The notes: generated from the sequence alone by a model not told the origin. Numbered from the stretch's first letter, positions 18,891-50,123 are shown. The stretch is DNA of 64,000 bases from Candidatus Woesebacteria bacterium GW2011_GWA1_44_23 (GCA_001001045.1 LCIL01000005.1:21409-85408); one strand, 5' to 3'. Made by a program: numbers and translations.

Positions 18891-18925
18891 GCGGATCTTC
18901 GGTTGTTGTTAACTCCCTAACCGGA

Positions 18926-27417: not shown

Positions 27418-27418
27418 T

Positions 27419-29886: not shown

Positions 29887-29913
29887 CAAAATTGGAGTTA
29901 TAATTCCATCACG

Positions 29914-30132
29914 GTGGCTATTATATATGAAAGTATGAAAAAAACTATTGGGGAGCTTATCGACGGACTGTCTATTACTAACAACAAGATCTTCCATCTC
30001 GTCGACAAAGTCCAGCGCAACGAGCATACGCGCGAGGATGCAAAAAAAATCCAAGATTTAAATAAGTTAAGAAGTGAGTATATGAATGCTATAAACGAAT
30101 TCTTTAAGGAAAGGATAGATATAAAAGTGTGA
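29914..30132 (+). CDS. small hypothetical coiled-coil protein (72 aa)
   Basis: Its stop overlaps the next gene's GTG start (translational coupling). No similarity recognised. Confidence 0.3.
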   Translation: MAIIYESMKKTIGELIDGLSITNNKIFHLVDKVQRNEHTREDAKKIQDLNKLRSEYMNAINEFFKERIDIKV

Positions 30133-30917
30133 TTAGTATTTTCTCTGGAACAAAATTAACATCCTCCCGGATTAGAGGTATAGAAATGGCTACCTATCTC
30201 CAGGCCAAACACAACCCAAAAGAAGGATATAAAAACGATGTTTGTATTTATGTCAAACCCAAAGAAATGAGCGCAATTAAAGACGGTGACTGGGTTGATT
30301 TTCTAGATTCCAACATCAGCCTCATCGTCCAGTTGAAGGATCGGCCAAAGGTAAAGGTGATTGCCGCTTCGGAAGCCAGCAATGAAGCCCTCAAGCGGGT
30401 TTTGCCAAACGAAATTATCCTTATTCCCTCACATCACATCAATCAGGAAAAACTTAAAAGAACAAGAAGGCAGATCTCTATCGGAGGCTATATCGGAGGA
30501 TTCTCACCCATGTATGAAGAAATTAGAAGAGGGTTAAAGAAAATCGGATTTGATTTTGTAACCTGCTTCGATTTCAAAGGACGAACAGATGCGATGAAAC
30601 TGTACGAAAGCATCGATCTTCTGATTATTGGGTGGTGGACCGGAGACGACAGCCCCCATAAGATACCGACCAAGATTATCAACGCCGCCTCGTTTGGAAT
30701 CCCGTCGATTGCATATCCTTTGCGCGGATATAAAGAAATTGAAGGATTTTATGTTTCTGCTCATAATTTAAGTGAGATAATAACTGAAGCGGAAAAATTT
30801 AAGGATGAGGACTATTACAATAGATGGGCAAAGAAGATTTCCAAGATGGCTGAAAAATACCATATTAGCAAGATTGCCAAACTATATAAAAAACTAAAAC
30901 CAGGTTTTCCTGCTTAA
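30129..30917 (+). CDS. putative glycosyltransferase (GT-B-like C-terminal motif)
   Basis: ...KIINAASFGIPSIAYPLRGYKEIEG resembles the GT4-type nucleotide-sugar-binding C-terminal motif. Confidence 0.4.
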   Translation: MISIFSGTKLTSSRIRGIEMATYLQAKHNPKEGYKNDVCIYVKPKEMSAIKDGDWVDFLDSNISLIVQLKDRPKVKVIAASEASNEALKRVLPNEIILIPSHHINQEKLKRTRRQISIGGYIGGFSPMYEEIRRGLKKIGFDFVTCFDFKGRTDAMKLYESIDLLIIGWWTGDDSPHKIPTKIINAASFGIPSIAYPLRGYKEIEGFYVSAHNLSEIITEAEKFKDEDYYNRWAKKISKMAEKYHISKIAKLYKKLKPGFPA

Positions 30918-31018
30918 ATCTCTTGAAGGAATGGGGTATTATACACATTCGGAGAGAAGAGTAATTCCATACCTTCCCTGCTGAGAATCGGGTAAAATGG
31001 TGCGTATAGAATATCCAT

Positions 31019-31888
31019 ATGGGTTCAAACAAAAAACCAATAAACTTATCAATAATAATTCCCAGTCGAGATTGCCCCTATTTAATGAAAACTATCCAAA
31101 GTATATTAGACAATTGCGTCACCAATATTGAAATTATGGTAAATATTGACGGAAAACCCCCGAGAAAATTTATTAAGGACAAAAAGGTCACATATATCGT
31201 ACAACCTACTCCAATTGGGATGCGGGGCGGAATAAATAATGGGCTTAAAGCAGCTAAGGGCAAATTTATAATGAAGTGCGATGACCACTGCTTATTTGCT
31301 AAAGGATTTGACAAGATTCTGACAAACACCATGCAAGAGAATTGGCTGGTAACCCCCAAACGTTATTCTCTAAACGAAGTGAAATGGGAAAGGGATGAAA
31401 CCCGACCAATTAAAGAATATCTCTACCTATCCTATCCCAAAAAGTCCGTTCACGGACTTGCCATGTTCCCCGTAGATTGGAATAAAAAAAGTGATCGTCT
31501 TATAGATGATACCATGATGATTCAGGGAAGCTGTTGGCTAGCAAACAGAAAATATTTCATGAAACGAGTGGGTTTTCTTGACGATAAGCCTGAAACGTAC
31601 GGGACCTTTGCCCAGGAACCCGTAGAAGTTGCTTTGAAATACTGGCTTGGAGGCGGGGCGGTCAAGGTAAACAAAAATACCTGGTATGCCCACCTAAAAA
31701 AGAGTAAAAGGTACTATAACGAAACAGGCTGGGCAGAAAAGTTTGCAAAGCAGAACAAAGCAGTAGCAAAAGGCAATGAATGGGCAACCGTACACTGGAT
31801 GAATAATGAGGAACCCAACATGATTCACCCTTTTAGCTGGTTTATAAAAAAATTTCAACCGATTCCGGGTTGGGAGAATTACAAATGA
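31019..31888 (+). CDS. glycosyltransferase family 2-like protein (QGSCW paralog)
   Basis: LSIIIPSRDCP...MMIQGSCWLANRKYF. Confidence 0.55.
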   Translation: MGSNKKPINLSIIIPSRDCPYLMKTIQSILDNCVTNIEIMVNIDGKPPRKFIKDKKVTYIVQPTPIGMRGGINNGLKAAKGKFIMKCDDHCLFAKGFDKILTNTMQENWLVTPKRYSLNEVKWERDETRPIKEYLYLSYPKKSVHGLAMFPVDWNKKSDRLIDDTMMIQGSCWLANRKYFMKRVGFLDDKPETYGTFAQEPVEVALKYWLGGGAVKVNKNTWYAHLKKSKRYYNETGWAEKFAKQNKAVAKGNEWATVHWMNNEEPNMIHPFSWFIKKFQPIPGWENYK

Positions 31889-33372
31889 AAAAAATACTAA
31901 TAACAGGATGCGGAGGGATGTTGGGCGATGCTGTTTATGCTCAATTACGTAAAAGGTATCATGTCAACGCCACCGACATCAACCTCATTGAACCCTGGCT
32001 AAGTTACTTGGACGTCAGAGACCTTAAGAGTGTTAAAAAGGTTTGCGCCGAATTCAAACCGGATTATCTGATTCATCTGGCAGCCTTAACCGACATGGAA
32101 TACTGTGAAACCCACCCAGAAGAGGCGGCGCAAGTTAACGGAACTGCCACAGAAAATCTGGTTAAAATCTCCAAAAAACTTGATATTCCCTTTGTCTACA
32201 TCAGCACTGCAGGTATTTTTACCGATGACAAAAAGGAGCATAGCGAAAAAGACGACCCCAAAGACACTCCTGTAAGTGTATATGGCAAAACCAAATACCA
32301 AGGTGAGGTAGCAGCGAAATCATGGCGTAAGTCGATCATAATCAGGGCCGGTTGGATGATGGGTGGCGGACCCAAAAAGGACAAAAAATTCATCAATAAA
32401 ATTGTCAAACAATTAAGTAGCGGCGCTACAAAGATAAATGTGGTCAACGACAGGGTCGGCACCCCAAGCTATACCTACGATTTGGCAAAAATAATTGTAT
32501 TTCTTCTCGAAAGGAATCTTTACGGTTTATATCACGGCACTTGCGACGGAGGAAACGTAACCCGCCACGATGTCGTCAGTCATATACTTGAATGTTTTAA
32601 CTTGCAAGACAAGGTCAAAGTGGTTGAGGTGGGATCAGATTATTTTAAGGATAGTTTTTTTGCCCCGCGGCCGTTTTCCGAACAGCTAGGCAACAAAAAA
32701 CTTAAATCCACCAACCCAGAATTATTCCGCAGCTGGCGGGACTGTTTAAAGGAATATTTAGGCATGTTTTATTGGAAAGTATCAGGCAACCATACCCCGC
32801 TTTGCGATCTGGCCTATAAATACGGAACCGACAAATGTCCGGAAATAAACCATTCGTATACCCCTTTTTATTACAAATTGCTACAACCCAAAAGAAACTC
32901 TATCAAAAAGATTTTGGAAATAGGAATAGGCTACCCGTCCAACATGAATCATATCGTCCCCCATTACCGGGCGGGTGCAAGTTTATATATGTGGAGGGAG
33001 TTTTTCCCCAACGCCATGATTTACGGAGCTGATATTCTCCCGGAAGCGTTGTTCAAAGACGCACATATAGAAACTTTTTTGTGTAACCAGAAAAAAGACA
33101 CGGACCTAACGAATTTAATCAAAAGCACGGGCTCGGATATCGATATCGTAATTGACGACGGCTCTCATGTAAAAAAGGTCCAGGTGTTTACTTGCCTTAT
33201 CCTATTGCCTCTTCTCAAAAAAGATGTTATTTACATAATAGAAGATGTTAAAGATGCCGTCGAGGTTACCGGAATGATTAAAAAACTCGGCGGGTATGAT
33301 TGCGAGGTTCCGAAGTTGAACCCGGAAAGGCAAGTGAGGCAGGATTGTTTGGTTATTGTTAAAAACAAATGA
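31870..33372 (+). CDS. bifunctional protein: RmlD-like dTDP-4-dehydrorhamnose reductase (SDR) fused to class I SAM-dependent (sugar O-)methyltransferase
   Basis: N-terminal ITGCGGMLG...YGKTKYQGE (YGxSKxxGE RmlD signature). C-terminal LEIGIGYP...DIVIDDGSH (MTase motifs I and post-I). Confidence 0.6.
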   Translation: MGELQMKKILITGCGGMLGDAVYAQLRKRYHVNATDINLIEPWLSYLDVRDLKSVKKVCAEFKPDYLIHLAALTDMEYCETHPEEAAQVNGTATENLVKISKKLDIPFVYISTAGIFTDDKKEHSEKDDPKDTPVSVYGKTKYQGEVAAKSWRKSIIIRAGWMMGGGPKKDKKFINKIVKQLSSGATKINVVNDRVGTPSYTYDLAKIIVFLLERNLYGLYHGTCDGGNVTRHDVVSHILECFNLQDKVKVVEVGSDYFKDSFFAPRPFSEQLGNKKLKSTNPELFRSWRDCLKEYLGMFYWKVSGNHTPLCDLAYKYGTDKCPEINHSYTPFYYKLLQPKRNSIKKILEIGIGYPSNMNHIVPHYRAGASLYMWREFFPNAMIYGADILPEALFKDAHIETFLCNQKKDTDLTNLIKSTGSDIDIVIDDGSHVKKVQVFTCLILLPLLKKDVIYIIEDVKDAVEVTGMIKKLGGYDCEVPKLNPERQVRQDCLVIVKNK

Positions 33373-34091
33373 AAAATCTACTGGTTTATGTAAGTAAAGA
33401 TAAAAAGTTTAACCGGGAGTGTGAGACTCTGGCCAAAATCCAAATTGACAACAGTCTTCGTTTAAAGTGGAGAAAAGAAGATATTTTAATGGTCACTAAC
33501 TTTGATTATGAGTATCGGGGAGTTAAAGCTATCGTTGTAGGGGACGAGAATTATTGTGCAGTCAGGCCAAGATCGATTAAAACTTCGATAATCCCCCACT
33601 TAATTGAAAAGGGAATCATAGAAAAAAGGCATATTTACTGGAATCATGATTTTGACGCTTTTCAATTGCATTCTATCAAAGATGAAGAATTGGGACTAGA
33701 CGGTTTTGATGCGGGCTTTACCGACTACGGTTGGAAAAACGACTGGTGTTTGGGAAGTGATTTTATAAAGGAGAGCGCAAAAGACATCTTTGAGTGGCTG
33801 AGGGACGCAATATTTGCTAATTGGGAGGATGAGGAAATACTCGGAAGAATTACGAGAAGGAATACACATAATATCAACTCGAGAATAAAGAAAATGAATA
33901 TAACTTATCAGATTGGAATGAAAAACGTTGATTTTAACTACAAAATAGCTGCAAAACCGCTAAAAGTTCTCCACTTCCATCCGCATAAACCGGGGCTCCT
34001 AGACATCTTCATGTACGGCAAAAACCAAACGGACAAACCCCTTATGCCTAAGGGTTTAATCAATATATTTAATAAACACGGAATAAAGTAA
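33369..34091 (+). CDS. hypothetical protein (glycan-locus associated)
   Basis: 240 aa, no recognisable motif. Start overlaps the upstream stop. Confidence 0.45.
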   Translation: MKNLLVYVSKDKKFNRECETLAKIQIDNSLRLKWRKEDILMVTNFDYEYRGVKAIVVGDENYCAVRPRSIKTSIIPHLIEKGIIEKRHIYWNHDFDAFQLHSIKDEELGLDGFDAGFTDYGWKNDWCLGSDFIKESAKDIFEWLRDAIFANWEDEEILGRITRRNTHNINSRIKKMNITYQIGMKNVDFNYKIAAKPLKVLHFHPHKPGLLDIFMYGKNQTDKPLMPKGLINIFNKHGIK

Positions 34092-34260
34092 ATACGTTAT
34101 GAGCAAACCATCAGTGGTGGCAATCTTGCCGAATTTTTAAAAAGTATTAGAAAAAGGTGCGAAAACCTATAGAGATCCATAATATTTGCAATCCAAATAT
34201 TAATTCCCAAACGAATATCCTGGGTATCGGAATGAAGGTCATGGAAATTTTCAGAAATAT

Positions 34261-34944
34261 ATGAATAGAGATTTAACAATAATTTATTACTCATCTAATC
34301 GGGAAGTGCCCGAGTTTGAGACCAGAATTAGGAACAATATTTTAAAAGTTTGTGGCGATTTGCCCATAATAAGCGTTACTCAAAAGCCGATAGACTTTGG
34401 AAAAAATATTGTTGTTGGAGATGTGGGAGCTTCTGGGTTTAACATGTTTAGGCAAGTTCAAATTGCCTGCAAGGAGGCAACAACGAAGTTCGTAGTTTCT
34501 GCTGAAGCGGATTGCTTGTACCCCCCGGACTATTTCACCTTTATTCCCGAGAAGGACAACGTATGTTACCGTAATAAAAATCTATATGTAATGGGTCAAT
34601 ATAGAACCTATTTCTACAAAAAGGAGGAAGGTGCAACGCACGCCCAAGTGGTCGGGCGGGAGTTCTGCTTAAGAACTCTGGATAAACTTTTTGAAGGAGG
34701 TCCGAATTGGTCAATCAAGGAGAGAAATTTCCCCAAAGAGAGGACTCATCAAAAAAAGGAGGATGTTTTTGGCAGTGACGAAATTGAATTCTACGAGACA
34801 AAAAATCCGATTGTACAAATAAAAACAAGCCACAGCATGCGACATTACACTCATTCTGATAGAATACCTCGTGACGAACTTCCCTATTGGGGCAAGGGGG
34901 TAGATTTTAGAAAAAAATATTACGATATCGGATTTAGGCATTAA
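34261..34944 (+). CDS. hypothetical protein, paralog family B (QPIDFGKNIV motif), possible GT-A-like
   Basis: Shares ...V(S)..QPIDFGKNIV...(E)AD/EHD..LY.P..F with the 35578..36321 product. Confidence 0.45.
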   Translation: MNRDLTIIYYSSNREVPEFETRIRNNILKVCGDLPIISVTQKPIDFGKNIVVGDVGASGFNMFRQVQIACKEATTKFVVSAEADCLYPPDYFTFIPEKDNVCYRNKNLYVMGQYRTYFYKKEEGATHAQVVGREFCLRTLDKLFEGGPNWSIKERNFPKERTHQKKEDVFGSDEIEFYETKNPIVQIKTSHSMRHYTHSDRIPRDELPYWGKGVDFRKKYYDIGFRH

Positions 34945-34946
34945 AT

Positions 34947-35576
34947 ATGAAACTAATAGATGCAATTAAAGAGCAGCACGGAAGGCCATTTACAATCCCC
35001 GATTGCTCCCGTGATGAACTCCCCGAATGTTTTAAACAAATGGGCTACAAAACAGGGGCAGAGGTCGGGGTTTATAAGGGGGCGTTTACCGAAAAATTCT
35101 GTAAAGCAGGCTTAAAAATGTATGCCATAGATCCCTGGAAGGCATATCAGGGAGCCGGCCGTACTCAACAGGAACAAGCAAGGCAAGACTTCCTTTACGG
35201 GCATACTCAAAGGACTCTCGCTCCCTATAAAGACTGTACAATAATCAGAAAGACGTCGATGGACGCTCTAAACGACTTCGGCCCGGGAAGCCTGGACTTT
35301 GTCTATTTGGACGGCGATCACCGCTTCCCGTACGTGGCACAAGATATTTATGAATGGAGCGAGAAAGTCAAAAACGGTGGGGTGGTCTCCGGGCATGATT
35401 ATTTCTGCACGGATCCACGGGCAAAAAATGTTTTGTGCCAGGTGGGCGCGATAGTAGATGCTTATGTTAGTGCCTTCGGAATTGAAAATTTTTATGTATT
35501 CGGACGGTCCAAATCACTGGAACTTGAGGCCAAAGATGACAGATATCTAAGCTGGATGTGGATTAAGCCTCTCTGA
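34947..35576 (+). CDS. class I SAM-dependent methyltransferase (Methyltransf_24/TylF-like)
   Basis: GAEVGVYKGAFT...FVYLDGDHRFPYVAQDIYEWSEKVKNGGVVSGHDY. Confidence 0.55.
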   Translation: MKLIDAIKEQHGRPFTIPDCSRDELPECFKQMGYKTGAEVGVYKGAFTEKFCKAGLKMYAIDPWKAYQGAGRTQQEQARQDFLYGHTQRTLAPYKDCTIIRKTSMDALNDFGPGSLDFVYLDGDHRFPYVAQDIYEWSEKVKNGGVVSGHDYFCTDPRAKNVLCQVGAIVDAYVSAFGIENFYVFGRSKSLELEAKDDRYLSWMWIKPL

Positions 35577-35577
35577 C

Positions 35578-36321
35578 ATGACAAGCACAAAAGGGTGCAT
35601 TTACTACACCGATAACCGCCCGAAGTCTTTTATTTTGGATAAATGCCGTGAGGAAATTTTAAAAGGCTGGAAAGGTCCCCTGGTTTCGGTTTCGCTTCAA
35701 CCGATTGACTTCGGCAAAAATATAGTCTTGGCAGGGGTAGAACGCGGACTCCCGACTATGATCAAACAAATAACAATGGCTTTGGAGGCACTGGATACTG
35801 ACATTGTCTTTTTTCTGGAACATGATGTTTTATATCACCCGTCTCATTTCGATTTCACTCCCCCAAAGGAAGAAATCTATTATTACAATCTCAATAACTG
35901 GCGCTGGGGAATTAAGGAAAATTTTGCTATTACATACGATGGTCTGACCTCCCTTTCTCAACTCGCATGTTACCGAAAAACTGCCCTAAACCATTATAAA
36001 GGAAGACTTAAATACATCATTGACCACGGACTTAACAAGGACCAAAGCCGGGATCCGAGATGGGGACGGGTTATGGGCTACGAGCCCGGAACAAAGCCCA
36101 GGAGGAGGGGTGGTTTTTCCGATGAAAAGTTTGAGATTTGGAAAAGCGATTTTCCAAACATAGATATCCGCCACAGACATACATTTTCCCCGCCGAAATA
36201 CAATTTGGCTGATTTCAAACATCAACCGATAAACTTCCGCCAAGAGAAAATTGAAAATATTCCTTACTGGAATCTGAAAACGTTGCGGGATCAATGGCTG
36301 GATAAATACATAATAAATTAA
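35578..36321 (+). CDS. hypothetical protein, paralog family B
   Basis: Paralog of the 34261..34944 product. Confidence 0.45.
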   Translation: MTSTKGCIYYTDNRPKSFILDKCREEILKGWKGPLVSVSLQPIDFGKNIVLAGVERGLPTMIKQITMALEALDTDIVFFLEHDVLYHPSHFDFTPPKEEIYYYNLNNWRWGIKENFAITYDGLTSLSQLACYRKTALNHYKGRLKYIIDHGLNKDQSRDPRWGRVMGYEPGTKPRRRGGFSDEKFEIWKSDFPNIDIRHRHTFSPPKYNLADFKHQPINFRQEKIENIPYWNLKTLRDQWLDKYIIN

Positions 36322-36361
36322 ATGAATAAAGGCATGGTTCTCCACACCGCTTTTCCCGGCT

Positions 36362-37474
36362 TTGATAATGCCTAAGTATGCTGTATTATTGCCTCACGCG
36401 AAACCTATGGCTGATCTTTCAATATTAATACCGGCACGGAATGAAATATTTCTGGCCCGCACGATAGAAGACCTCCTGGCAAACATCGAGGCTGATACCG
36501 AGATCATCGCTGTTTTGGACGGGGTACCCGCCAACCCTCCGATTCCCAAAAATGAAAGAGTAAATGTAATCTCCCTTTCCGAAAGTATCGGACAAAGGGC
36601 GGCAACTAATCTTGCCTGTAAATTAAGCCGCGCCAAATATGTAATGAAGGTAGACGCACACTGCGGATTTGATAAAGGTTTTGACCGAAAAATGCTCGAG
36701 GCATTTAAAATTACCGGAGACAACGTTACGATGGTCCCAATTATGCGTAACCTCTGGGCATATGACTGGAAATGCTACCACTGCGGCTGGAAAAAATACC
36801 AAGGCCCCACTCCGGAAAAGTGTGGGCAGTGCGGTAAGGGAGACAAAATTAGAAGAAAGATGCTTTGGATCGGAAAACATAACCCTCAAAGTACTTCTTA
36901 CTGCTTTGACTCGTCTCCCCATTTCCAGTACTTCGAGGATTGGAAACACCGGCCGCAATACGAAAAAGACAAGAGAGAAACGGGACTGACTGAAACAATG
37001 AGCCTGCAGGGCAGCTGCTGGATGTTGACCCGCGAAAAATACTGGGACCTTAATGTTTGCGAAGAAGCATTTGGGGGTTGGGGTTCTCAGGGAATTGAAG
37101 TTGCGGTTAAAACCTGGCTTTCCGGAGGTAGAGTTATTGTCAATCATAAAACTTGGTATGCACATATGTTTAGAACCCAAGGGGGCGACTTCGGGTTCCC
37201 CTACCCGATTTCAGGAAAGGATCAGGAAAAGGCGAAAAGATATGCAAGGGATTTGTTTTTCAACAATAACTGGAATAAGCAAATTCGCCCTCTTTCCTGG
37301 CTCATCGAAAAATTCTGGCCGGTGAAGGGGTGGGCAGAAGAAGACTTGACCAAGCTTAAAACAAACACTTTCAGATTTAAAGAGAAAGCGGAGCCAAAAC
37401 CTGCCGAGAGTGAGCCCGTTACAAGTGATCCGGTAAGAAACCATCAGACGGGTGTTATTTACTCCGCCACTTAA
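36362..37474 (+). CDS. glycosyltransferase family 2-like protein (QGSCW paralog) with inserted CxxC...CxxC zinc-ribbon
   Basis: LSILIPARNE...; WKCYHCGWKKYQGPTPEKCGQCGKGD; MSLQGSCWMLT. Confidence 0.55.
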   Translation: MIMPKYAVLLPHAKPMADLSILIPARNEIFLARTIEDLLANIEADTEIIAVLDGVPANPPIPKNERVNVISLSESIGQRAATNLACKLSRAKYVMKVDAHCGFDKGFDRKMLEAFKITGDNVTMVPIMRNLWAYDWKCYHCGWKKYQGPTPEKCGQCGKGDKIRRKMLWIGKHNPQSTSYCFDSSPHFQYFEDWKHRPQYEKDKRETGLTETMSLQGSCWMLTREKYWDLNVCEEAFGGWGSQGIEVAVKTWLSGGRVIVNHKTWYAHMFRTQGGDFGFPYPISGKDQEKAKRYARDLFFNNNWNKQIRPLSWLIEKFWPVKGWAEEDLTKLKTNTFRFKEKAEPKPAESEPVTSDPVRNHQTGVIYSAT

Positions 37475-37648: not shown

Positions 37649-40600
37649 ATGGCAGTAACATACGTCAAAGCTAGTACCCCCAATACAGATGCGGCGGGAG
37701 CCTTTACAGTAACAGGTGCAGCTCCTGCTGTTGCTGGGAATATTATCATCCTTCAAATTTTTCAGGACGGTACTACTGACGGGGCGGTAACTCAAACCAG
37801 TGCTACCAATATTACTGCTCTAGATGGTACGGCTAATACATGGACTGCTATTACCGAACAGTCGGTAGGAGCATCAGACGAAGGTAGACAGTATCTATGG
37901 GTAGGGCGTTCAAGCGGAAGGTCTACTCCCACATTTACAGGCGGCAACACAACTTCAGAGGATCTTTACCTCAGGATGTATGAGTTTAGCGGAGTAGATG
38001 CTAATGCCACGACTTTATCTGGGATTCTTGAAAACGGTACTGCAGGAACTGTAGCTAACGGCACTGGAACATCTGCGTCCGTTTCTGATACAAGCGTTCA
38101 GACACTGGGAGATGGCCGGCTCGCATTAAATTTTATCGCTGTAAACGATGATCCCCAGGCAGCAGAACTAGCCGCAATGACTGGTGAAACAGGGGGGGAT
38201 TGGGCTTATCCTGTTGCTGCGTGGGGTTCTAGTTCTGGCACTGACGGTACAATCGCTTTAGTTACAGCTTCTATCCCTTCTTCGGGAACAATTGATGGAG
38301 GCTCAGATGCCATAACTTCAGCTGCTTGGGGGGTGATAGGCTTTGCCCTTAAACCTGAATTTACTCCAACAGTAGCTTTAAGTACCCCTGCAGATGACGC
38401 GACAGGAGTAAGTACCACCCCAGCCCTAGTTTTTACAGGAACAGATGCTAACTCAGATGAAGTGGAATATGAGGTACAGGTAGATACAGTAAACACTTTT
38501 GATTCTTCGTCAGCCACTATGGCTAGCAATAGTGAAAGTACTTATGACCATGATTACATTGATAATTATAATTCAGTACCTCCTTCATGGTATGGTCAGA
38601 CATTTACCCCACCTTTTATGGGACCCGTCACTTCAGTTAAGTTTTATTTAAAAGGTTCCGATGGTTTAACGGGTAACATGCCAGTTAGATTGTATGCCAC
38701 AGACACCTCTGGTACTCCAGTAGGTGAAATATTAGCCACATCAGCTAATTTGGATTTATCTAGTCTTTCAACTTCTGCTTATGAACTAGTAGAGTTTATA
38801 TTTAGTTCCCCATACACAGTTGAGTCTGGGGTTCTGTATGCATTAACTTTAGAAAATCTTAGTTCCTCTAACCTATATGTTGGTGCAGATATTAGTTCTC
38901 CTGCTTATACAAATGGTACTGCAATTAGTATGAGTCCCGGTGGTTACCTGACTGTTGCTAGTGATTTATGTTTTTATGTTTATAGTGGAGGTTCTCTTCT
39001 TGACATCTTCTCCCTCGCCGATAACGATGCTAACTGGGCAGGCACAGGAGCACCTAATCCCTTTCCTTCAGGAAATGAAATAACCTATACAGTACCGGCA
39101 GGAAGTGCTTTAGCCGCAGGAACTACTTATTACTGGAGAGTACGAGCTATTGACCCTCTAGGAAGTAATGCCTGGGGATCTTGGAGTCCTGGGGCACATA
39201 GTGGATATAGTGAGTTTACAACACAGGCAACAGGTTCATTTTCGCCTTCGATTTCTCCATCTGTAAGTCCAAGTGCGTCTCCTTCGGTATCCCCCTCAGT
39301 CAGTCCGTCTATCTCGCCTTCTGTAAGTCCCTCAGTTAGCCCTAGTGTTTCCCCAAGTCTATCTCCCAGCGTTTCTCCTTCTGCATCTGTTTCGCCATCA
39401 ATCTCACCCAGTGTTAGTCCTTCGGAAAGCCCATCAGTATCGCCCTCGGTCTCGCCTTCAGTTTCACCCTCTGCATCCATATCTCCATCGACCTCACCCA
39501 GTGTTAGTCCATCAGTAAGTCCCAGTGCAAGTGCTAGCCCATCGGTCTCACCATCGGCTAGTCCGTCGGTGTCTCCCAGCGTTTCTCCTTCCGTAAGTCC
39601 GTCGGCTTCTGTTAGTCCGTCTATGAGTCCGAGTGTATCGCCCTCTGTAAGTCCCTCTGCATCAGTTTCACCATCTATCAGTCCTTCTGTGTCTCCCTCC
39701 GTCAGCCCCAGTGTCAGCCCCAGTGTCTCACCCAGCGCAAGTATCTCTCCAAGTGTTAGTCCCAGCGTGTCGCCAAGTGCTTCTCCTTCTATTTCACCTT
39801 CCGTTTCTCCATCAGCTTCTATATCTCCGTCAGTTTCGGAAAGTGTAAGTCCATCCGTTAGCCCAAGTGCGAGTGTAAGCCCGTCGGAATCACCGTCAGT
39901 TAGTCCATCTGTATCTCCAAGCTTTAGCCCTTCGATCTCAGCCAGTATATCGCCAAGCATATCTCCGAGTGTGTCCCCTTCGGCTTCCGTATCCCCATCG
40001 GTTTCCCCCAGTATCAGCCCTTCTGTCTCCCCAAGTGCCAGCCCAAGTCAAAGCCCATCGGCATCAATTAGTCCTTCCGTAAGTCTATCCATTTCTCCTT
40101 CTTTCTCTCCGTCCGCATCCATTAGTCCCAGTGTCTCTCCCAGCATATCGCCCTCGATCAGTCCATCAGTATCCCCTTCGGAGTCTCCCTCTGCATCAGC
40201 TAGCCCATCTATTAGCCCTAGCGTATCTCCTTCTGTCTCGCCCAGTGCTTCTGTGTCCCCTTCGGTAAGTCCGTCTGCAAGTGTTTCGCCTTCTGTCTCC
40301 CCATCGGCCAGTCCATCTGTCTCTCCGAGTCAAAGTCCATCGATTAGCCCATCAATTAGTCCGAGTATATCTCCTTCCGTTTCGCCTTCAGCGTCGATTA
40401 GTCCGTCAATTAGTCAATCAGCAAGTCCGTCAGTGTCACCGAGTGCGAGTATTAGCCCTTCACTAAGTCCAAGCATGTCTCCTTCTGTTTCTCCTTCTGG
40501 GTCAATCTCACCCTCAATAAGTGCTTCCGTTTCGCCTTCTGTCTCCCCTTCAGCATCTATTTCTCCGTCAATAAGTCCTTCTATTAGTCCGTCTGTTTCC

Positions 40601-42538
40601 CCATCGACTAGTCCATCTGTCTCTCCGAGTCAAAGTCCATCGGCTTCGATTTCCCCGTCTGTCTCTCCAAGCGTTTCTCCTTCAATAAGTCCATCGGTAA
40701 GTCCAAGTTTGTCTCCTTCGGTAAGTCCTTCAGCTTCGGTTTCACCAAGTATCTCGCCAAGTTTGTCTCCTTCGGTTTCCCCCAGCGCAAGTATTTCACC
40801 TTCCATTTCTCCAAGCGTTTCTCCTTCGATAACTATATCATCGTCTATCAGTCCAAGTGTGTCACCCAGTGTCAGTCCATCGGTAAGTCCTTCGGTATCA
40901 TCTTCTCAAAGCCCTTCCGCATCAGTATCCCCATCAGTTTCACTGTCCGTAAGCCCAAGTGTATCTGCGAGCGTTTCCCCGTCGGTTTCCCCTTCAGCCG
41001 GATCAAGCGAGTCTCCATCACTTTCACCAAGTATAAGCCCATCAATTAGCCCCTCAGTTTCCCCATCTGTCAGTCCTTCGATTTCCCCTAGTGTTTCGCC
41101 ATCAATCAGTCCTTCTGCTTCGATTTCTCTATCTGTAAGCCCGTCGGTTTCACCATCAGTCAGTCCGTCGATAAGCGCTTCCGTTTCACCAAGCCCCAGT
41201 GTTTCTCCTTCGACTAGTGCGAGCATTTCTCCTTCCATTAGCCCATCAGTCAGTCTGTCGGTGTCACCCTCAATTAGTCCAAGTGTCTCTCCTTCGGTTT
41301 CACCAAGTATCTCGCCAAGTTTGTCTCCTTCGGTTTCCCCCAGCGCAAGTATTTCACCTTCCATTTCTCCAAGCGTTTCTCCTTCGATAATCAGCCCTTC
41401 GGTGTCACCAAGTATAAGCCCATCCATTTCGCCCAGCATCTCACCTTCTCAAAGTCCGTCAGTGTCCGTATCACCTAGCCAATCTCCCTCCGCCTCTCTG
41501 TCACCGTCAGTATCGCCCAGTGCAAGTATTAGCCCTTCAATAAGTCCAAGTGTCTCACCTTCGGTTTCACCTTCTGGATCAATCTCACCCTCAGTAAGCC
41601 CTTCTGTTTCACCTTCTGTCTCTCCTTCAGAATCTATTTCCCCGTCAATAAGCCCATCCCGCAGCCCGTCAGTTTCTCCATCCATCAGCCCGTCAGCAAG
41701 TCCGTCTGTGTCACCAAGCGCAAGTATTTCGCTGTCTATTAGCCTGAGTGCTTCTCCATCTGTTTCCGCCTCGATATCGCCGTCTGTTTCACCTTCTGTA
41801 AGTCTCAGCGTTTCTCCTTCGATAAGCCAATCGGTAAGTCCAAGTTTGTCTCCTTCGGTAAGTCCTTCAGCTTCGGTTTCACCAAGCGCAGGCTTTTCAA
41901 TTTCACCCAGCGTTTCACCGTCTCAAAGCCCTTCGGCTGCGGCTCCCTCAAGTCTCAGTCCATCCGTGTCTCCATCAATTTCTCCTTCAATTGCCATTTC
42001 AACCTCACTATCTCCAAGTGTGTCCCCTTCTATCTCAGCATCCCCATCAATACCGTCTTCAATATCTCTTTCTGTATCACCAAGTGCGAGTCTAAGTCCA
42101 AGCCTGAGCCCATCGGTCGGTCCTAGCGGGAGTCCGCCAGCTTTGCCCAGCACCAGTGCCTCTTTCTCTGTTAGCCCAAGTGCCTCACCGTCACTGTCTG
42201 CTAGTGCTTCTCCTACTGAATCAGCATCACCTTCACCTGCCACGGTGGTATATTCTGCCAGCGCCAGCCCGAGTGTTTCTCCGTCGATCAGCCCCTCTCC
42301 CGCCCGCTATGCATCACCAGAAAAGCCCAGCTTTTATTATGACTCCGCTATTGTTCTCCGGGATGTGGCAAATCGTGATGTTAACTTAAGTGGGCTTCAA
42401 GATACCATACCTTCATGGAACAATGCAGGCCGGCCGAAGAATTTAAAACCCGCCACATTAGGTTTCAATATTGAGACAAAGGATCTCGAATTATATGACG
42501 GATCATTATGGCATAGGCTGCCAATGAAAAAAGTATAG
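37649..42538 (+). CDS. giant Ser/Pro-repeat surface protein (1629 aa): N-terminal globular/FN3-like region, about 1000 aa of SPSxSP repeats, conserved C-terminal domain
   Basis: RBS ggagg upstream. N-terminal region includes ...TTYYWRVRAIDPLGSNAWGSWS. Repeats SPSVSPSISPSVSPSAS.... C-terminus ...PSWNNAGRPKNLKPATLGFNIETKDLELYDGSLWHRLP. Confidence 0.8.
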   Translation: MAVTYVKASTPNTDAAGAFTVTGAAPAVAGNIIILQIFQDGTTDGAVTQTSATNITALDGTANTWTAITEQSVGASDEGRQYLWVGRSSGRSTPTFTGGNTTSEDLYLRMYEFSGVDANATTLSGILENGTAGTVANGTGTSASVSDTSVQTLGDGRLALNFIAVNDDPQAAELAAMTGETGGDWAYPVAAWGSSSGTDGTIALVTASIPSSGTIDGGSDAITSAAWGVIGFALKPEFTPTVALSTPADDATGVSTTPALVFTGTDANSDEVEYEVQVDTVNTFDSSSATMASNSESTYDHDYIDNYNSVPPSWYGQTFTPPFMGPVTSVKFYLKGSDGLTGNMPVRLYATDTSGTPVGEILATSANLDLSSLSTSAYELVEFIFSSPYTVESGVLYALTLENLSSSNLYVGADISSPAYTNGTAISMSPGGYLTVASDLCFYVYSGGSLLDIFSLADNDANWAGTGAPNPFPSGNEITYTVPAGSALAAGTTYYWRVRAIDPLGSNAWGSWSPGAHSGYSEFTTQATGSFSPSISPSVSPSASPSVSPSVSPSISPSVSPSVSPSVSPSLSPSVSPSASVSPSISPSVSPSESPSVSPSVSPSVSPSASISPSTSPSVSPSVSPSASASPSVSPSASPSVSPSVSPSVSPSASVSPSMSPSVSPSVSPSASVSPSISPSVSPSVSPSVSPSVSPSASISPSVSPSVSPSASPSISPSVSPSASISPSVSESVSPSVSPSASVSPSESPSVSPSVSPSFSPSISASISPSISPSVSPSASVSPSVSPSISPSVSPSASPSQSPSASISPSVSLSISPSFSPSASISPSVSPSISPSISPSVSPSESPSASASPSISPSVSPSVSPSASVSPSVSPSASVSPSVSPSASPSVSPSQSPSISPSISPSISPSVSPSASISPSISQSASPSVSPSASISPSLSPSMSPSVSPSGSISPSISASVSPSVSPSASISPSISPSISPSVSPSTSPSVSPSQSPSASISPSVSPSVSPSISPSVSPSLSPSVSPSASVSPSISPSLSPSVSPSASISPSISPSVSPSITISSSISPSVSPSVSPSVSPSVSSSQSPSASVSPSVSLSVSPSVSASVSPSVSPSAGSSESPSLSPSISPSISPSVSPSVSPSISPSVSPSISPSASISLSVSPSVSPSVSPSISASVSPSPSVSPSTSASISPSISPSVSLSVSPSISPSVSPSVSPSISPSLSPSVSPSASISPSISPSVSPSIISPSVSPSISPSISPSISPSQSPSVSVSPSQSPSASLSPSVSPSASISPSISPSVSPSVSPSGSISPSVSPSVSPSVSPSESISPSISPSRSPSVSPSISPSASPSVSPSASISLSISLSASPSVSASISPSVSPSVSLSVSPSISQSVSPSLSPSVSPSASVSPSAGFSISPSVSPSQSPSAAAPSSLSPSVSPSISPSIAISTSLSPSVSPSISASPSIPSSISLSVSPSASLSPSLSPSVGPSGSPPALPSTSASFSVSPSASPSLSASASPTESASPSPATVVYSASASPSVSPSISPSPARYASPEKPSFYYDSAIVLRDVANRDVNLSGLQDTIPSWNNAGRPKNLKPATLGFNIETKDLELYDGSLWHRLPMKKV
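39240..42290 (+). repeat. coding tandem repeat array, 9-nt/18-nt periodicity (SPS[VIAL]SP)
   Basis: Direct reading of the translation. Antisense ORFs (GE/TD/LG-rich) are artefacts of the same repeat. Confidence 0.85.
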
Positions 42539-43902: not shown

Positions 43903-43903
43903 A

Positions 43904-45050: not shown

Positions 45051-46496
45051 ATGGCAACACGGTTGTATCTACCATCAACGGGGACTCCCGCGGTAACCCC
45101 CGCTTATAGTGCGTCTTGGACCGGAACTGACGAGGCGTCAAGGCTAAGTGCTGTAACAACAAAAATCTCTTCGGCGATGGCCTCTGCTTCGACCACAACC
45201 GATACCAGTAAAGTCCCGGATGCTTATCTCATGAGGCAGTACGTTTCTGATCCTTTGACCACTCAAACAATTTTAGCCCAAACAGTCAAATGGCAAATTA
45301 GAGCCTCTGAGACAAACCTATCAAACAATATTTTTACCGCAATTACTATTAGAAGTTGGGACGGTGCTTCTACTTTTCAAACACTGCTTGCTTTAACCTA
45401 TGACGGTACGGAGTTAACAACGTCTCTGGTCAACAGACAATTTAGCGCCACAACCACAGAGGTAAGTATTACTTCCGGAGACAGGTTAATTATTGAAATC
45501 GGAGTAGGTGGTGACCCTACACCCTCCGGATCCGACTTTCATCACGGATCCTTGCGTATTGGAGACGCATCATCAACGGACCTGCCAGAAAATGATACCG
45601 ATACAAACGATTACAATCCCTGGGTCGAGTTTGCAAATACTTTGACATTCGCTGTGGCCGGCCCTTCGTTTTCGCCATCGGTTTCTCCTTCAGTTTCTCC
45701 TTCGGTTTCTCCTTCTATTTCCCCTAGTATTTCTCCGTCAGTTTCTCCCAGTATTTCTCCTTCTATTTCACCTTCAATTTCACCATCTGTTTCCCCTAGT
45801 ATTTCTCCGTCAGTTTCTCCCAGTATTTCTCCTTCTATTTCACCTTCAATTTCACCATCTGCCTCGATATCCCCTTCTATTAGTCCAAGTGAGTCTCCTT
45901 CGGTTTCACCATCAATCAGCCCGTCAATTTCACCATCTGAATCACCATCGACAAGTCCTTCGGTAAGTCCCAGTGCTTCACCGTCGGTCTCACCGTCAGA
46001 AAGTCCATCCGAAAGCCCATCAGAATCTCCTTCGGTTTCTCCGTCAATTTCTCCCAGCGCTTCGCCTTCGGTATCACCATCCGAATCTCCGTCAGCGAGT
46101 CCTTCTATATCCCCTTCAATATCACCCAGTCCGAGTATGTCTCCTTCAACCTCACCAAGCACATCTCCTTCAATAAGCCCTTCCGAATCACCATCGGCTA
46201 GCCCTTCAATTAGCCCTAGCTTATCTCCATCTGTTTCTCCATCAGAAAGTCCATCGGAGAGCCCGTCCGTTTCTCCAAGTGTCTCACCGTCTGTTTCACC
46301 TTCCATTGCCTCCAGCTTTTCACCTTCTATCTCACCTTCGGAAAGCCCGTCGGTGTCCCCGTCGGTGTCCCCGTCCCTTTCCCCGAGTGCCTCCCCAAGC
46401 ATTAGTCCGTCTGTTTCTCCTTCAGCTTCGATTTCACCATCTTATTCACCGTCTGTTTCACCTTCAGTCTCTCCATCGCAATTAGCCCTTCCATAA
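45051..46496 (+). CDS. Ser/Pro-repeat surface protein, N-terminal part (unique 200-aa domain plus SPS repeats); probably continuous with the next two ORFs
   Basis: N-terminus MATRLYLPSTGTPAVTPAYSASWTGTDEASRL.... Repeats begin about aa 205. The frame ends inside the repeat at a junction sequence that recurs at 47740. Confidence 0.6.
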   Translation: MATRLYLPSTGTPAVTPAYSASWTGTDEASRLSAVTTKISSAMASASTTTDTSKVPDAYLMRQYVSDPLTTQTILAQTVKWQIRASETNLSNNIFTAITIRSWDGASTFQTLLALTYDGTELTTSLVNRQFSATTTEVSITSGDRLIIEIGVGGDPTPSGSDFHHGSLRIGDASSTDLPENDTDTNDYNPWVEFANTLTFAVAGPSFSPSVSPSVSPSVSPSISPSISPSVSPSISPSISPSISPSVSPSISPSVSPSISPSISPSISPSASISPSISPSESPSVSPSISPSISPSESPSTSPSVSPSASPSVSPSESPSESPSESPSVSPSISPSASPSVSPSESPSASPSISPSISPSPSMSPSTSPSTSPSISPSESPSASPSISPSLSPSVSPSESPSESPSVSPSVSPSVSPSIASSFSPSISPSESPSVSPSVSPSLSPSASPSISPSVSPSASISPSYSPSVSPSVSPSQLALP

Positions 46497-49110
46497 GCCC
46501 CTCCCTTTCTCCCTCGGTTAGTCCGAGTCTGTCTCCATCGGTCTCCCCGAGTGCCTCCCCAAGCATTAGTCCGTCTGTTTCTCCTTCAGCTTCGATTTCA
46601 CCATCTATGAGCCCCTCCGAATCACCATCTACGTCTCCTTCCACGTCACCGTCGATTTCGCCTTCGGTTTCACCAAGCCCGAGTATTAGTCCCTCAGTAA
46701 GTCCGAGTTTTTCTCCGTCAGTTTCATCGTCAATCTCACCAAGCATTTCACCCTCCGTCTCGCCGTCACCGTCGATATCTCCTTCAATAAGTCCGTCCGT
46801 TTCACCTTCCCCCGGCTCCAGTTTTTCTCCATCCATAAGTCCGTCAATCTCGCCTTCGATTAGCTCTAGTGTTTCGCCGTCAGTCAGCCCGTCGGTATCA
46901 CCATCTCCCTCCGTCTCGCCTTCGGTTTCGCCAAGCCCGAGTATTAGTCCCTCAATAAGCCCGAGTGTCTCTCCGTCAGTCTCTCCCAGTGTAAGTTCAT
47001 CGGTTTCTCCCTCAGTATCGCCATCGGCGTCGATCTCGCCATCTATATCTCCAAGCAAGTCGCCATCAGTGTCTCCAAGTGTATCCGTCAGTATCTCCCC
47101 TTCGGTTTCGCCTTCACCATCCATCTCGCCTTCAGTAAGCCCATCGGTAAGTGCGTCGATCTCTCCTTCTATCAGTTCCAGTGTCTCGCCTTCTGTCTCC
47201 CCAAGTCCTAGCATGTCCTCATCGATAAGCCCGTCGGCGTCCCCGTCTGTTAGTCCGTCCGTTTCCTCATCTGTTAGTCCGTCTATTTCCCCGTCACCGT
47301 CAGCATCACCTTCGAATAGCCCATCGGTAAGTCCATCGATCTCTCCTTCAGTAAGTCAAAGCATTTCCCTTTCGGTTTCTCCTTCCCCATCCGTCTCGCC
47401 TTCGGTAAGCCCATCGGTTTCCCTGTCTGCATCGCCGTCCGGATCGCCGTCTGTTTCACCATCGGTTTCTCCCTCACTGTCTGTTTCGCCATCCGTCTCC
47501 CCGAGCCCAAGTGCTTCACCATCCGTAAGTGCCTCGATCTCTCCTTCAATAAGTCCGTCCGTTTCGCCTTCCCCCGGCTCCAGTTATTCTCCTTCCATAA
47601 GTCCGTCAATCTCGCCTTCAATTAGCCCGAGTCTGTCTCCATCGGTCTCCCCGAGTGCCTCCCCAAGCATTAGTCCGTCTGTTTCTCCTTCAGCTTCGAT
47701 TTCACCATCTTATTCACCGTCTGTTTCACCTTCAGTCTCTCCATCGGTGTTTCGGCATCCATTAGCCCATCTACCTCGCCCTCGGTTTCCATATCTCCGT
47801 CTATTTCACCCAGTAAATCTCCGTCTATTTCACCAAGTGTTTCTCCCAGTATTTCCGCCTCTATTTCTCCAAGTCCTAGTATTTCGCCTTCAATTAGCCC
47901 AAGTGTGTCTCTTTCGGTGTCTCCCAGTGTTAGCCTGTCAATTTCTCCCTCCGTCTCGCCATCACCTTCCCTGTCCCCGTCCTTTAGTCCAAGCCAATCT
48001 CCTTCGGTTAGTCCGAGTGTTTCCCCGTCAGTCAGCCCGTCGGTATCACCATCTCCTTCGATCTCGCCATCGGTGTCACCAAGCGCGAGTATCAGCCCTT
48101 CAATAAGTCCGAGTATTTCTCCGTCAGTTTCTCCCAGCGTAAGTTCATCGGTTTCTCCCTCGGTATCGCCCTCACCGTCGATTTCACCTTCAATGAGCCC
48201 ATCGGTAAGTCCATCAATCTCTCCTTCAATAAGTCAAAGCATTTCCCCTTCGGTTTCGCCCTCTATTGGTGTAAGTATTTCTCCATCGGTTAGTCCCAGC
48301 GTCTCAGTATCCAAATCCCCGAGTATTTCACCGTCAAAGTCTCCGTCCTTAAGTCCGTCGGTTTCACCCTCGCCTTCCCGTTCGCCCTCTCTTAGCCCAA
48401 GTGAGTCCGCTTCTGTTTCACCCTCTGCTTCACTTTCGCCGTCGGAATCCGCTTCGGTAAGTCCTTCCTTCTCACCATCGGCTTCCATCTCACCCTCAAG
48501 AAGCCCTTCTATTTCACCTTCTATAAGTCCCAGTATTTCACCCTCAAAGTCTCCATCAGCAAGCCCGTCCACTTCTCCCTCTGCTTCAATCTCGCCATCT
48601 TTGAGCAAGTCTGCCTCACCTTCAAGATCGCCTTCAGTTTCCCCGTCAGGATCGGCGTCAATTTCACCTTCATCAAGCTCATCGGTCTCACCTTCGGTAT
48701 CAATCTCGCCAAGTGTTTCTCCTTCGGTTTCTCCAAGCCCCAGTCTGTCACCTTCTGTAAGTCCAAGTAAATCGCCCTCTCTTTCTCCGTCAATCTCACC
48801 AAGCTTTTCTCCGTCGGTTTCTATCTCCCCTTCATTAAGCGCATCGGTCTCGCCAAGCCCGAGCGTTTCTCCTTCCCCTTCCCTCTCCCTGTCCATTTCA
48901 CCAAGCGTTTCTCCGTCGGCTTCTATATCACCTTCGGTTTCGCCACCAAATTCAATTTCACCTTCCATTTCCCCCTCAAGCGCTCCTGTTGCGAGCGCCT
49001 CGCCTTCGGTTTCCCCGTCCCCATCAGCTGCCGGGGTGGCTTCTTCTGTCTCGCCGTCACCTTCTCCGGCGGTAATTGTTTACTCGGCCAGTGCCAGCCC
49101 ATCAACCTCT
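45660..49110 (+). repeat. coding SPSxSP tandem repeat array spanning three ORFs in three frames
   Basis: Seen directly. An 80-100 bp sub-repeat recurs at about 46370, 46531 and 47641. Confidence 0.8.
46607..48106 (+). CDS. SP-repeat ORF (frame open from about 46481); middle segment of the same repeat gene
   Basis: Pure SPSxSP repeat translation. The frame differs by one from its neighbours. Confidence 0.45.
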   Translation: MSPSESPSTSPSTSPSISPSVSPSPSISPSVSPSFSPSVSSSISPSISPSVSPSPSISPSISPSVSPSPGSSFSPSISPSISPSISSSVSPSVSPSVSPSPSVSPSVSPSPSISPSISPSVSPSVSPSVSSSVSPSVSPSASISPSISPSKSPSVSPSVSVSISPSVSPSPSISPSVSPSVSASISPSISSSVSPSVSPSPSMSSSISPSASPSVSPSVSSSVSPSISPSPSASPSNSPSVSPSISPSVSQSISLSVSPSPSVSPSVSPSVSLSASPSGSPSVSPSVSPSLSVSPSVSPSPSASPSVSASISPSISPSVSPSPGSSYSPSISPSISPSISPSLSPSVSPSASPSISPSVSPSASISPSYSPSVSPSVSPSVFRHPLAHLPRPRFPYLRLFHPVNLRLFHQVFLPVFPPLFLQVLVFRLQLAQVCLFRCLPVLACQFLPPSRHHLPCPRPLVQANLLRLVRVFPRQSARRYHHLLRSRHRCHQARVSALQ

Positions 49111-49365
49111 TTCAGTCCTTCCATCCCCCCAGTTCCGGAAGAGCCGATACTGTATAAAAATCCAACTATTTTCAGAAACAAAAGAGTATCTGTAGGTGTG
49201 AGCTATGTTCCAAGCGGACAGCCAAGACTCCCGTCATGGAACACGGCGGGAAGACCCAAAAACCCAAGGGCAAGAGTCGTCGGATTTAATTTCGCAACTT
49301 CCAGTTTAGAATATTGGAATGGATCAAAGTGGTTAATACTACCTATGAAGAGGATCAAAACTTAG
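47905..49365 (+). CDS. SP-repeat ORF (frame open from about 47750) carrying the conserved C-terminal domain
   Basis: C-terminus ...RLPSWNTAGRPKNPRARVVGFNFATSSLEYWNGSKWLILPMKR. Confidence 0.55.
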   Translation: MSLSVSPSVSLSISPSVSPSPSLSPSFSPSQSPSVSPSVSPSVSPSVSPSPSISPSVSPSASISPSISPSISPSVSPSVSSSVSPSVSPSPSISPSMSPSVSPSISPSISQSISPSVSPSIGVSISPSVSPSVSVSKSPSISPSKSPSLSPSVSPSPSRSPSLSPSESASVSPSASLSPSESASVSPSFSPSASISPSRSPSISPSISPSISPSKSPSASPSTSPSASISPSLSKSASPSRSPSVSPSGSASISPSSSSSVSPSVSISPSVSPSVSPSPSLSPSVSPSKSPSLSPSISPSFSPSVSISPSLSASVSPSPSVSPSPSLSLSISPSVSPSASISPSVSPPNSISPSISPSSAPVASASPSVSPSPSAAGVASSVSPSPSPAVIVYSASASPSTSFSPSIPPVPEEPILYKNPTIFRNKRVSVGVSYVPSGQPRLPSWNTAGRPKNPRARVVGFNFATSSLEYWNGSKWLILPMKRIKT

Positions 49366-49445
49366 CAGGTTGGGCATCTTGTAAGGAGAGACCTTTCAAG
49401 GAGGCTAACAGGAAGATTAACCATTAACCTATCAAATTTTTACTA

Positions 49446-49474
49446 TTGATATGGGGTGGTAAGATTAATATAAT
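49446..49474 (+). promoter_or_regulatory. near-consensus promoter TTGATA-17-TATAAT, 12 nt upstream of the ATG of the mini-gene
   Basis: TTGATA at 49446-49451, 17-nt spacer, TATAAT at 49469-49474. The leader is very short and has no obvious SD. Confidence 0.45.
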
Positions 49475-49486
49475 AATTTAAACAAT

Positions 49487-49681: not shown

Positions 49682-49731
49682 TCAAAAGTACTACTTGTTT
49701 TTTTATAATTTCGGATTAATAATGTTGCAAG

Positions 49732-49935: not shown

Positions 49936-49941
49936 AAATTT

Positions 49942-50103: not shown

Positions 50104-50123
50104 TCCAGTAGAATGTTCTCAAG

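Follow-up and report, generated by a model that had tools for sequence, protein, structure and literature searches.

How should a long Ser/Pro-rich coding region be understood when, within a single locus, it is read in three frames one after the other? The question is raised by a 64,000-nucleotide stretch of DNA from Candidatus Woesebacteria bacterium GW2011_GWA1_44_23 (GCA_001001045.1, LCIL01000005.1:21409-85408), which was analysed over its full length and is called the window below. On its plus strand lies a gene, designated SP gene 2 (45051..49365), that as assembled is read as three open reading frames (ORFs): 45051-46496 in frame 0, 46607-48106 in frame 2, and 47905-49365 in frame 1. The second of these stays open further upstream. 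Tetrapeptide repeats of the form S-P-S-x are present in all three; the first ORF starts with about 205 non-repetitive amino acids (aa), and about 75 aa without repeats close the last one. A preliminary description of this DNA had noticed three consecutive ORFs in frames 0, 2, and 1, and 45051-49365 reads exactly so. It had also taken them for a single gene, which the single ORF of intact assemblies bears out. We conclude that the three-ORF structure is a local assembly error, made at scaffold joins, and not biology, with a probability of about 93%. The true gene 2 is one uninterrupted ORF of roughly 1,500-1,700 codons (at least 1,488-1,674).

The Ser/Pro-rich frame switches at 46478|46479 and at 47746|47747, each time by -1 (+2), and these positions agree with the changes earlier placed near 46479 and 47745. 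The earlier observation that the frame changes directly after a shared sequence block also holds: an exact repeat of 99 nucleotides (nt) occurs at 46380..46478 and 47648..47746 (+), with a frame change at the end of either full copy. The block had been counted three times. At its full length of 99 nt it is present only twice, and the third copy (46544-46606, +) comprises its first 63 nt, with no frame change after it. The exact-repeat scan that located these copies also returned the 63-nt core common to 46380-46442 and 46544-46606, as well as an 84-nt exact repeat at 46523..46606 (+; second copy 47627-47710) that contains the partial block. The longest exact repeats of the whole window are two pairs of exactly 99 nt each, one being this gene 2 pair and the other a pair in a second SP gene, gene 1. 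Such a coincidence in length is far from chance and points to a k-mer limit of the assembler.

The same locus could be compared in 20 other public contigs (L001-L020) that belong to a single Candidatus Woesebacteria population of the Rifle aquifer, retrieved through two exactly conserved neighbours, a 222-aa protein and TatC. They come from NCBI metagenome-assembled genomes, ENA assemblies made with MEGAHIT (k141) and SPAdes, ENA 'ANAN16' scaffolds, and JGI. In nine assemblies free of N (IDBA-UD, MEGAHIT k141, SPAdes, and JGI), gene 2 is a single ORF of 1,028-1,674 codons: 1,674 in L003, 1,496 in L020, 1,488 in L004, 1,472 in L012/L015, 1,434 in L011, 1,396 in L013, 1,052 in L014, and 1,028 in L017. 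The gene is broken in the window, in L016, and in L001/L019 and L002/L018, which have runs of N inside it; those of the curated sister genomes L001 and L002 sit exactly on the junction sites. In five further contigs (L005-L009), the sequence stops at gene positions 1384-1470, either within the first 99-nt copy or shortly behind it (positions in the two-copy numbering of a 72-nt unit, corrected for L006/L009).

Two deletions aside, the window differs from L004 by 1 mismatch over 4,315 nt. The deletions remove 40 nt after gene position 1428 (window 46478) and 112 nt after gene position 2696 (window 47746). The first junction (46478..46479, +), which is blunt and leads from frame 0 to frame 2, lacks 40 nt relative to L004 and 64 nt relative to L003/L020. 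The second (47746..47747, +), with a junction homology of 0-2 nt, leads from frame 2 to frame 1 and lacks 112 nt relative to L004/L020 and 646 nt relative to L003. Because the missing lengths, 40/112 against L004 and 64/646 against L003, are all four 1 mod 3, both frame steps are -1. When 64 and 112 nt from L020 are put back, the window yields one ORF of 1,496 codons that differs from L020 by a single base. The flanks tell the same story from either side. Among the other contigs, the 99-mer always continues with GTAAG(T/C)CC (9/9); the sequence found right of junction 1 always has ..CCGCGT before it (9/9), and the one found right of junction 2 always has ..GGTTAGCCCGA (7/7). Since the repeat end and the right-hand sides are flanked otherwise there, both junctions are unique to the window; neither was found in any of the 20 other contigs. 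A metagenome scan for the repeat end returned only a duplicate of the L003 contig and two unrelated matches. What is directly observed, then, is that sequence is deleted, where the deletions lie relative to the repeats, that other assemblies lack them, and that the ORF can be restored.

What could produce such junctions is suggested by the intact copies of the gene. These carry an exact 206-nt direct repeat at gene positions 1330-1535 and 2662-2867, with a spacing of 1,332 nt, and the window retains precisely the first 99 nt of it in both copies. A repeat of 206 nt would exceed both the largest k-mer of the assembler (100) and the read length, so that a contig entering it from the left would stop once it had covered k-1 = 99 bases of the repeat. 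The contig downstream of it would be cut back by an arbitrary length and butt-joined to it without Ns; at 46478|46479 such a join would lose 40-64 nt and at 47746|47747 it would lose 112 nt, taking the frame from 0 to 2 to 1. A fixed left end (repeat start + 99) combined with an arbitrary right end would be expected if a k = 100 contig ending k-1 bases into the repeat was joined without an overlap check. The window itself would then stem from an assembler of this kind, one that trims contig ends before joining them.

The paralogous gene 1 (37649..42538, +; 1,629 codons as assembled) probably went through the same process. It has a differing N-terminal region of about 540 aa, and it shares with gene 2 the type of array and the C-terminal domain. 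Its 99-nt repeat lies at 40734-40832 (+), followed by a blunt deletion of 48 nt at 40832|40833, and at 41292-41390 (+), followed by a blunt deletion of 63 nt at 41390|41391; the gene is shorter by 48 + 63 nt than in more than 15 other assemblies. The true repeat is here 112 nt long, and the window keeps 99 nt of each copy. This first locus had been described as intact, a view that does not survive the comparison: the ORF is open, but it contains two deletions, each after a 99-nt repeat copy, and it is still open by luck because 48 and 63 are divisible by three. The same joining process would have taken these 48 and 63 nt out of gene 1. In all, 4/4 blunt deletions of the window follow a 99-nt exact repeat copy, where the true repeats measure 206 and 112 nt, and the sibling assemblies show N-runs, contig ends, and variable deletions at the same sites.

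Such a history fits what has been reported for comparable assemblies. The sister genomes were assembled by IDBA-UD with --mink 40 --maxk 100 --step 20, and scaffolding errors were noted to arise where a pair of contigs had been scaffolded wrongly (Anantharaman et al. 2016, PMC5079060). Local errors that no read supports are reported to be prominent with IDBA-UD, including a complicated case in a repeat-containing gene from the candidate phyla radiation (CPR), and the procedure described there replaces unsupported sequence by Ns (Chen et al. 2020, PMC7111523). The present case resembles these errors in the short region affected, in the wrong joining of two contigs in a repeat-containing gene, in the Ns of the curated sister genomes, and in the value k-1 = 99, which fits --maxk 100. 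It differs in that the error is here known from assembled sequences. This is one of several points that weigh against the assembly-error explanation: the lack of read support for the two junctions is inferred from those sequences, the window is not among the 20 contigs, and an IDBA-type assembler is presumed for it. The right-hand ends of the deletions were checked for a simple de Bruijn rule that would predict them, and none was found; the trimming step may reflect IDBA's handling of negative gap estimates. Furthermore, array length varies by as much as 1,866 nt from one intact assembly to another.

The differences among assemblies fall into two classes. Those of the first (class a) are homology-mediated: they measure 24, 72, 228, 534, and 1,866 nt, have junction homologies of 5-539 nt, are always a multiple of 3, and are found in MEGAHIT, SPAdes, JGI, and IDBA contigs. 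In contigs made with MEGAHIT and SPAdes, no differences other than such homology-mediated, in-frame ones are seen. Those of the second (class b) are blunt, with 0-2 nt of homology, and comprise 64/646 nt in the window, 159/561 nt in L011, and 29/563 nt in L016, the latter two being NCBI assemblies of the other strain variant. Modulo 3 these lengths give 1/1, 0/0, and 2/2, respectively. The left end of every class b deletion is gene position 1428 or 2760, and the right ends differ. Among the class a differences, the 72-nt unit forms a perfect tandem duplication in the window (45718..45861, +; 24 aa x 2). Assemblies have one copy of the unit or two, each state being found across samples, in both strain variants and with three assemblers, and the copy-number difference is probably a genuine in-frame polymorphism of 24 aa. 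The 534-nt unit (a 539-nt exact repeat) is seen in L003 only; differences of 534 and 1,332/1,866 nt lie beyond short-read resolution in an array of at least 4.4-5.0 kb.

It is against this background that other explanations of the frame changes can be weighed. The preliminary description had offered either repeat-mediated misassembly or collapse, or genuine recombinational phase or size variation. Misassembly stands, in the form of blunt deletions at repeats. Classical homologous collapse, in which repeat copies are merged and the intervening sequence is lost, does occur at this locus elsewhere, with 1,866 nt missing from L014 and L017, 228 nt missing from L013, and a jump in L010 out of copy 1 into copy 2; each of these cases proceeds through 63-539 nt of homology. 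Such an event would however be in frame, the true repeat spacings all being multiples of 3, and it leaves junction homology; the window has two blunt junctions and has kept the sequence between the copies. We regard collapse between repeat copies as an extremely improbable source of the frame changes. Size variation, for its part, is supported by the in-frame differences of 72, 228, 534, and 1332/1866 nt, of which at least the first is probably real, but recombinational variation is not what changes the frame: the junctions are found in 0/20 contigs, and the array has no short out-of-frame unit. The idea that the -1 shifts are functional, whether as sites of ribosomal frameshifting or as a switch between on and off states, could draw on the fact that both are -1 and follow identical sequence, and still we grant it practically no chance. 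No X XXY YYZ slippery heptamer is present at ..TCTCCATCG|CAATTAG.. or ..TCTCCATCG|GTGTTTC.., frame 0 stops 5 codons past junction 1, and the sites are absent from all other assemblies, the relatives reading a continuous frame there. Nor is there a homopolymer or a non-triplet microsatellite on which phase variation could act, the array unit being 12 nt; the homology-mediated variants are all multiples of 3, and the frame changes are blunt deletions.

A genuine pseudogene would be another biological interpretation, with two real frameshifting deletions in gene 2, two in-frame ones in gene 1, and a fibre inactivated in part of the population. The deletions are, after all, present in the sequence as given, and repeat arrays are deletion-prone, as the in-frame length differences between samples illustrate. 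Yet four independent blunt deletions would be needed, all starting 99 nt into exact repeats and with 0-2 nt of homology, whereas biological deletions in arrays normally proceed through repeat homology and in multiples of the 12-nt unit. IDBA-type assemblies agree on the left ends and disagree on the right ends, the same places are marked by N-runs and contig ends, and the flanks are otherwise identical to those of intact alleles. Taken together, these points make a pseudogene very unlikely, and a local assembly error is retained as the explanation. The frame shift is thus biologically unimportant and mainly cautionary: an annotation of this locus as three ORFs or as a pseudogene would be wrong, and the seemingly intact paralogue gene 1 has been silently shortened too. 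Exact repeats of k-1 length followed by a blunt discontinuity provide a simple flag, readable from sequence only, for IDBA-type local errors.

The protein encoded by the restored gene 2 has three parts. The N-terminal globular domain of about 205 aa (45051..45665, +) is an all-beta jelly roll, predicted by AlphaFold2 (AF2) for the first 210 aa with a mean predicted local distance difference test score (pLDDT) of 94.8 and a predicted template modelling score (pTM) of 0.91. The product has no signal peptide, since the chain is in the fold from residue 3 onward, residues 3-6 forming a core strand. Foldseek searches against BFVD matched the N-termini of fibre-like proteins from uncultured Caudovirales, with template modelling (TM) scores up to 0.82 and an E-value of 1.6e-16, and these proteins continue into collagen repeats or S74 chaperone domains. 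Matches in the PDB were weak (the CocE C-terminal domain and TNF-like lectins). Relatives with 30-57% identity are free-standing proteins of 210-360 aa, some with other repeat types after the domain. Homologues are encoded in phage virion modules: in L024 (10001-10672) after the tape measure gene, in L025 (10001-10678) in a Mu-like head module, and in Streptomyces phage Wakanda, where gp27 (L026 9001-9759) lies between the major capsid protein and the head-to-tail adaptor. The free-standing homologues in phages are annotated merely as hypothetical. A genome contig scan found no relatives of the N-terminal domain among GTDB representatives.

The second part is the Ser-Pro-Ser-x tetrapeptide array (45666..49137, +), interrupted in the window by both artefactual junctions. 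It consists of 50% Ser and 23% Pro, in units S-P-S-x where x is most often V, followed by I and then by other residues. The six Ser codons and the four Pro codons are all in use, which suggests that the array is conserved at the protein rather than the DNA level. Across the arrays, the GC content rises to 0.50-0.53 and the GC skew falls to -0.36 (40001-42000) and -0.41 (46001-48000); these shifts are a compositional footprint of TCN/CCN codons and not a replication signal. Long antisense ORFs rich in GE(T/D) cross both arrays. Those over gene 2 (45611-46402, 46402-47214, and 48234-48968, all on the minus strand) are by-products of the repeat codons, and another is found in gene 1 (39130-39960, minus strand). 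Reading these antisense ORFs as the real genes was considered and rejected: they are fragmented, and the sense frame joins a confidently folded N-terminal domain to a conserved C-terminal one.

The third part is a conserved C-terminal domain (49138..49365, +) with the consensus ..IPSWNxxGRPKNxxxxxxGFNxxTxxLExWxGSxWxxLPMKK. Aligned with that of gene 1, the C-terminal tail of gene 2 has 29 invariant positions in 78 columns. The motif W-N-x-x-G-R-P...G-F-N-x-x-T-x-x-L-E-x-W-x-G-S-x-W occurs, often in tandem, in T7 tail-fibre, S74, and pectate-lyase proteins. It also ends dozens of 'proteins' of 50-170 aa that start inside Ser/Pro arrays, and these stubs are C-terminal fragments of the SP-fibre family. 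In scans of the N- and C-terminal domains against Pfam, NCBIfam, and PHROGs, nothing reached the curated thresholds, and the weak PHROG matches were to families of unknown function. A word-indexed homologue search with the 75-aa C-terminus gave no candidates; the relatives were found by a HMMER scan without a word index. An exact look-up of the first ORF (481 aa) returned no record, the sense SP proteins are absent from a collection of 15 billion proteins, and a literature search on Ser/Pro repeats in Woesebacteria brought up nothing relevant.

Full-length SP proteins appear to be missing from public databases. The genes called at this locus in public records are antisense GE(T/D) ORFs and small C-terminal stubs, such as P0054 (97 aa), in place of the real proteins of 1,500-1,700 aa. 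Because the arrays break or are corrupted in short-read assembly and gene callers pick the antisense ORFs, databases hold C-terminal stubs only (50-170 aa, dozens of clusters at 50% identity).

The genomic context of the two SP genes is that of a bacterial chromosome, the window encoding ArgRS, LeuRS, ComEC/ComEA, Rho, an M23/LysM peptidase, tRNA-Ala, TatC, and a sortase. Two neighbouring proteins, looked up by exact match, occur in Rifle aquifer genomes of Candidatus Woesebacteria (Microgenomates, CPR) such as RIFOXYB1_FULL_42_36. Upstream and in the same orientation lies a glycosylation cluster (29101..37474, +) with three family 2 glycosyltransferases (GT2), a weak GT1-like one, an RmlD-like reductase, a methyltransferase, and several unknowns. 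Phage hallmark genes (capsid, portal, terminase, and tape measure) were looked for in the window and none was found; a prophage origin of the region was set aside in view of its housekeeping genes. The SP-fibre C-terminus is followed by an ORF of about 65 aa and by tatA-tatA-tatC (window 49365-50873), and the same order of fibre C-terminus, small ORF, and tatA-tatA-tatC recurs in two divergent contigs, L028 (1102-2889) and L029 (653-2365), both of which begin inside a Ser/Pro array. Judged by this gene order, fibre genes appear to lie directly upstream of tatA-tatA-tatC in at least three divergent contigs, which may reflect a functional link to Tat export or mere conserved synteny.

Other features of the window deserve mention. 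A two-gene module is duplicated at 26257-28009 and 42856-44572, its copies being 28% and 33% identical. Its first gene encodes about 350-390 aa with a putative transposase-like N-region, a transmembrane segment, and a C-terminal SH3_3 domain; its second encodes about 200-220 aa, within which lies a twin-arginine-like motif (DRRTFLKLVGATG / NKRVFLKMIGATG). At 14202-23980 lie two adjacent giant ORFs of 1,562 and 1,684 aa without Pfam domains, the second with weak PHROG tail-fibre matches, and a 68-nt exact repeat in this region links 16455 and 18444. At 57981-58967 and 59564-60454, both on the minus strand, a 328-aa protein with a weak collagen-triple-helix match is encoded close to a sortase; the length of the 328-aa protein varies in sister assemblies (131+145, 319, or 328 aa).

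Our working model for the SP proteins is an extended surface or virion-like fibre with a variable head and a conserved C-terminal domain. The gene 2 product is probably such a fibre, made of a phage-type jelly-roll head, a long Ser/Pro stalk, and a C-terminal domain of about 45 aa, and its stalk is probably O-glycosylated by the neighbouring transferases. The earlier suggestion of an O-glycosylated mucin- or S-layer-like fibre is consistent with the adjoining cluster of GT2, RmlD-like, and methyltransferase genes. More tentatively, and at somewhat less than even odds, the two genes may represent a real and essentially unannotated family of giant bacterial fibres, in which variable heads are followed by 1,000-1,400 residues of S-P-S-(V/I/..) and the C-terminal domain, encoded beside a glycosylation island. 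If so, Woesebacteria and other CPR bacteria could carry this family as a major glycosylated fibre on their surface, and it may be an adhesin of phage origin for attachment to the host. A family of Ser-Pro fibres with phage-type end domains beside a CPR glycosylation cluster, poorly captured in public data, is thus the residual point of biological interest of this locus, and a moderate one.

How do these proteins compare with known systems? The (Ser-Pro)n hydroxyproline-rich glycoproteins of plants and volvocine algae share Ser/Pro-dominated, rod-like repeats for which extended structures of the polyproline-II type are expected, but they are eukaryotic, depend on prolyl hydroxylation, and are unrelated in sequence context. 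The BclA-type exosporium glycoproteins of Bacillus combine a TNF-like, jelly-roll domain with a long, length-polymorphic, O-glycosylated repeat stalk, are encoded next to a rhamnose and glycosyltransferase cluster, and also have no signal peptide. Unlike BclA, the SP protein has no G-X-Y repeats (Gly 0.5%), carries its globular domain at the N-terminus and not the C-terminus, and lacks a sporulation context. The serine-rich repeat proteins (SRRPs) of Gram-positive bacteria, exemplified by Fap1, GspB, and SraP, have very long, Ser-rich, short-period repeats between non-repeat domains, are encoded beside glycosyltransferases, and are notoriously hard to assemble. By contrast, gene 2 starts with a beta-strand of the fold instead of a signal peptide and ends in ..LPMKRIKT without an LPXTG motif, and no SecA2/SecY2 or GtfA/B is encoded in the 64-kb window, where Pfam scans of the neighbours recognized GT2, RmlD-like, methyltransferase, and TatA/TatC domains and no SecA/SecY. 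The SP unit is S-P-S-x with 23% Pro and that of SRRPs consists of S-x dipeptides, and the end domains of the SP proteins are of the phage-fibre type.

Phage fibres, finally, also combine a jelly roll with collagen-like or other repeats, as in the Caudovirales proteins of BFVD, or occur with the domain free-standing, as in Wakanda gp27. The likeness extends to the fold of the N-terminal domain (TM score 0.82, with relatives at 30-57% identity), to the succession of head domain, repeat stalk, and terminal domain, and to the C-terminal motif W-x-T-x-x-RP...GFN..T..LE.W.G..W, present in tail-fibre-type proteins with a T7 tail fibre N-domain or an S74 chaperone. The SP gene differs in that it lies in a bacterial chromosome among genes for Rho, TatC, ArgRS, and LeuRS, with no other phage genes nearby, and in that its stalk is made of SPSx and not of collagen G-X-Y; its terminal domains are of fibre type, and its location is outside any phage or prophage virion module. 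Functionally, the SP proteins come closest to SRRPs, BclA, and phage fibres, and they fall outside each of these groups by its defining features.

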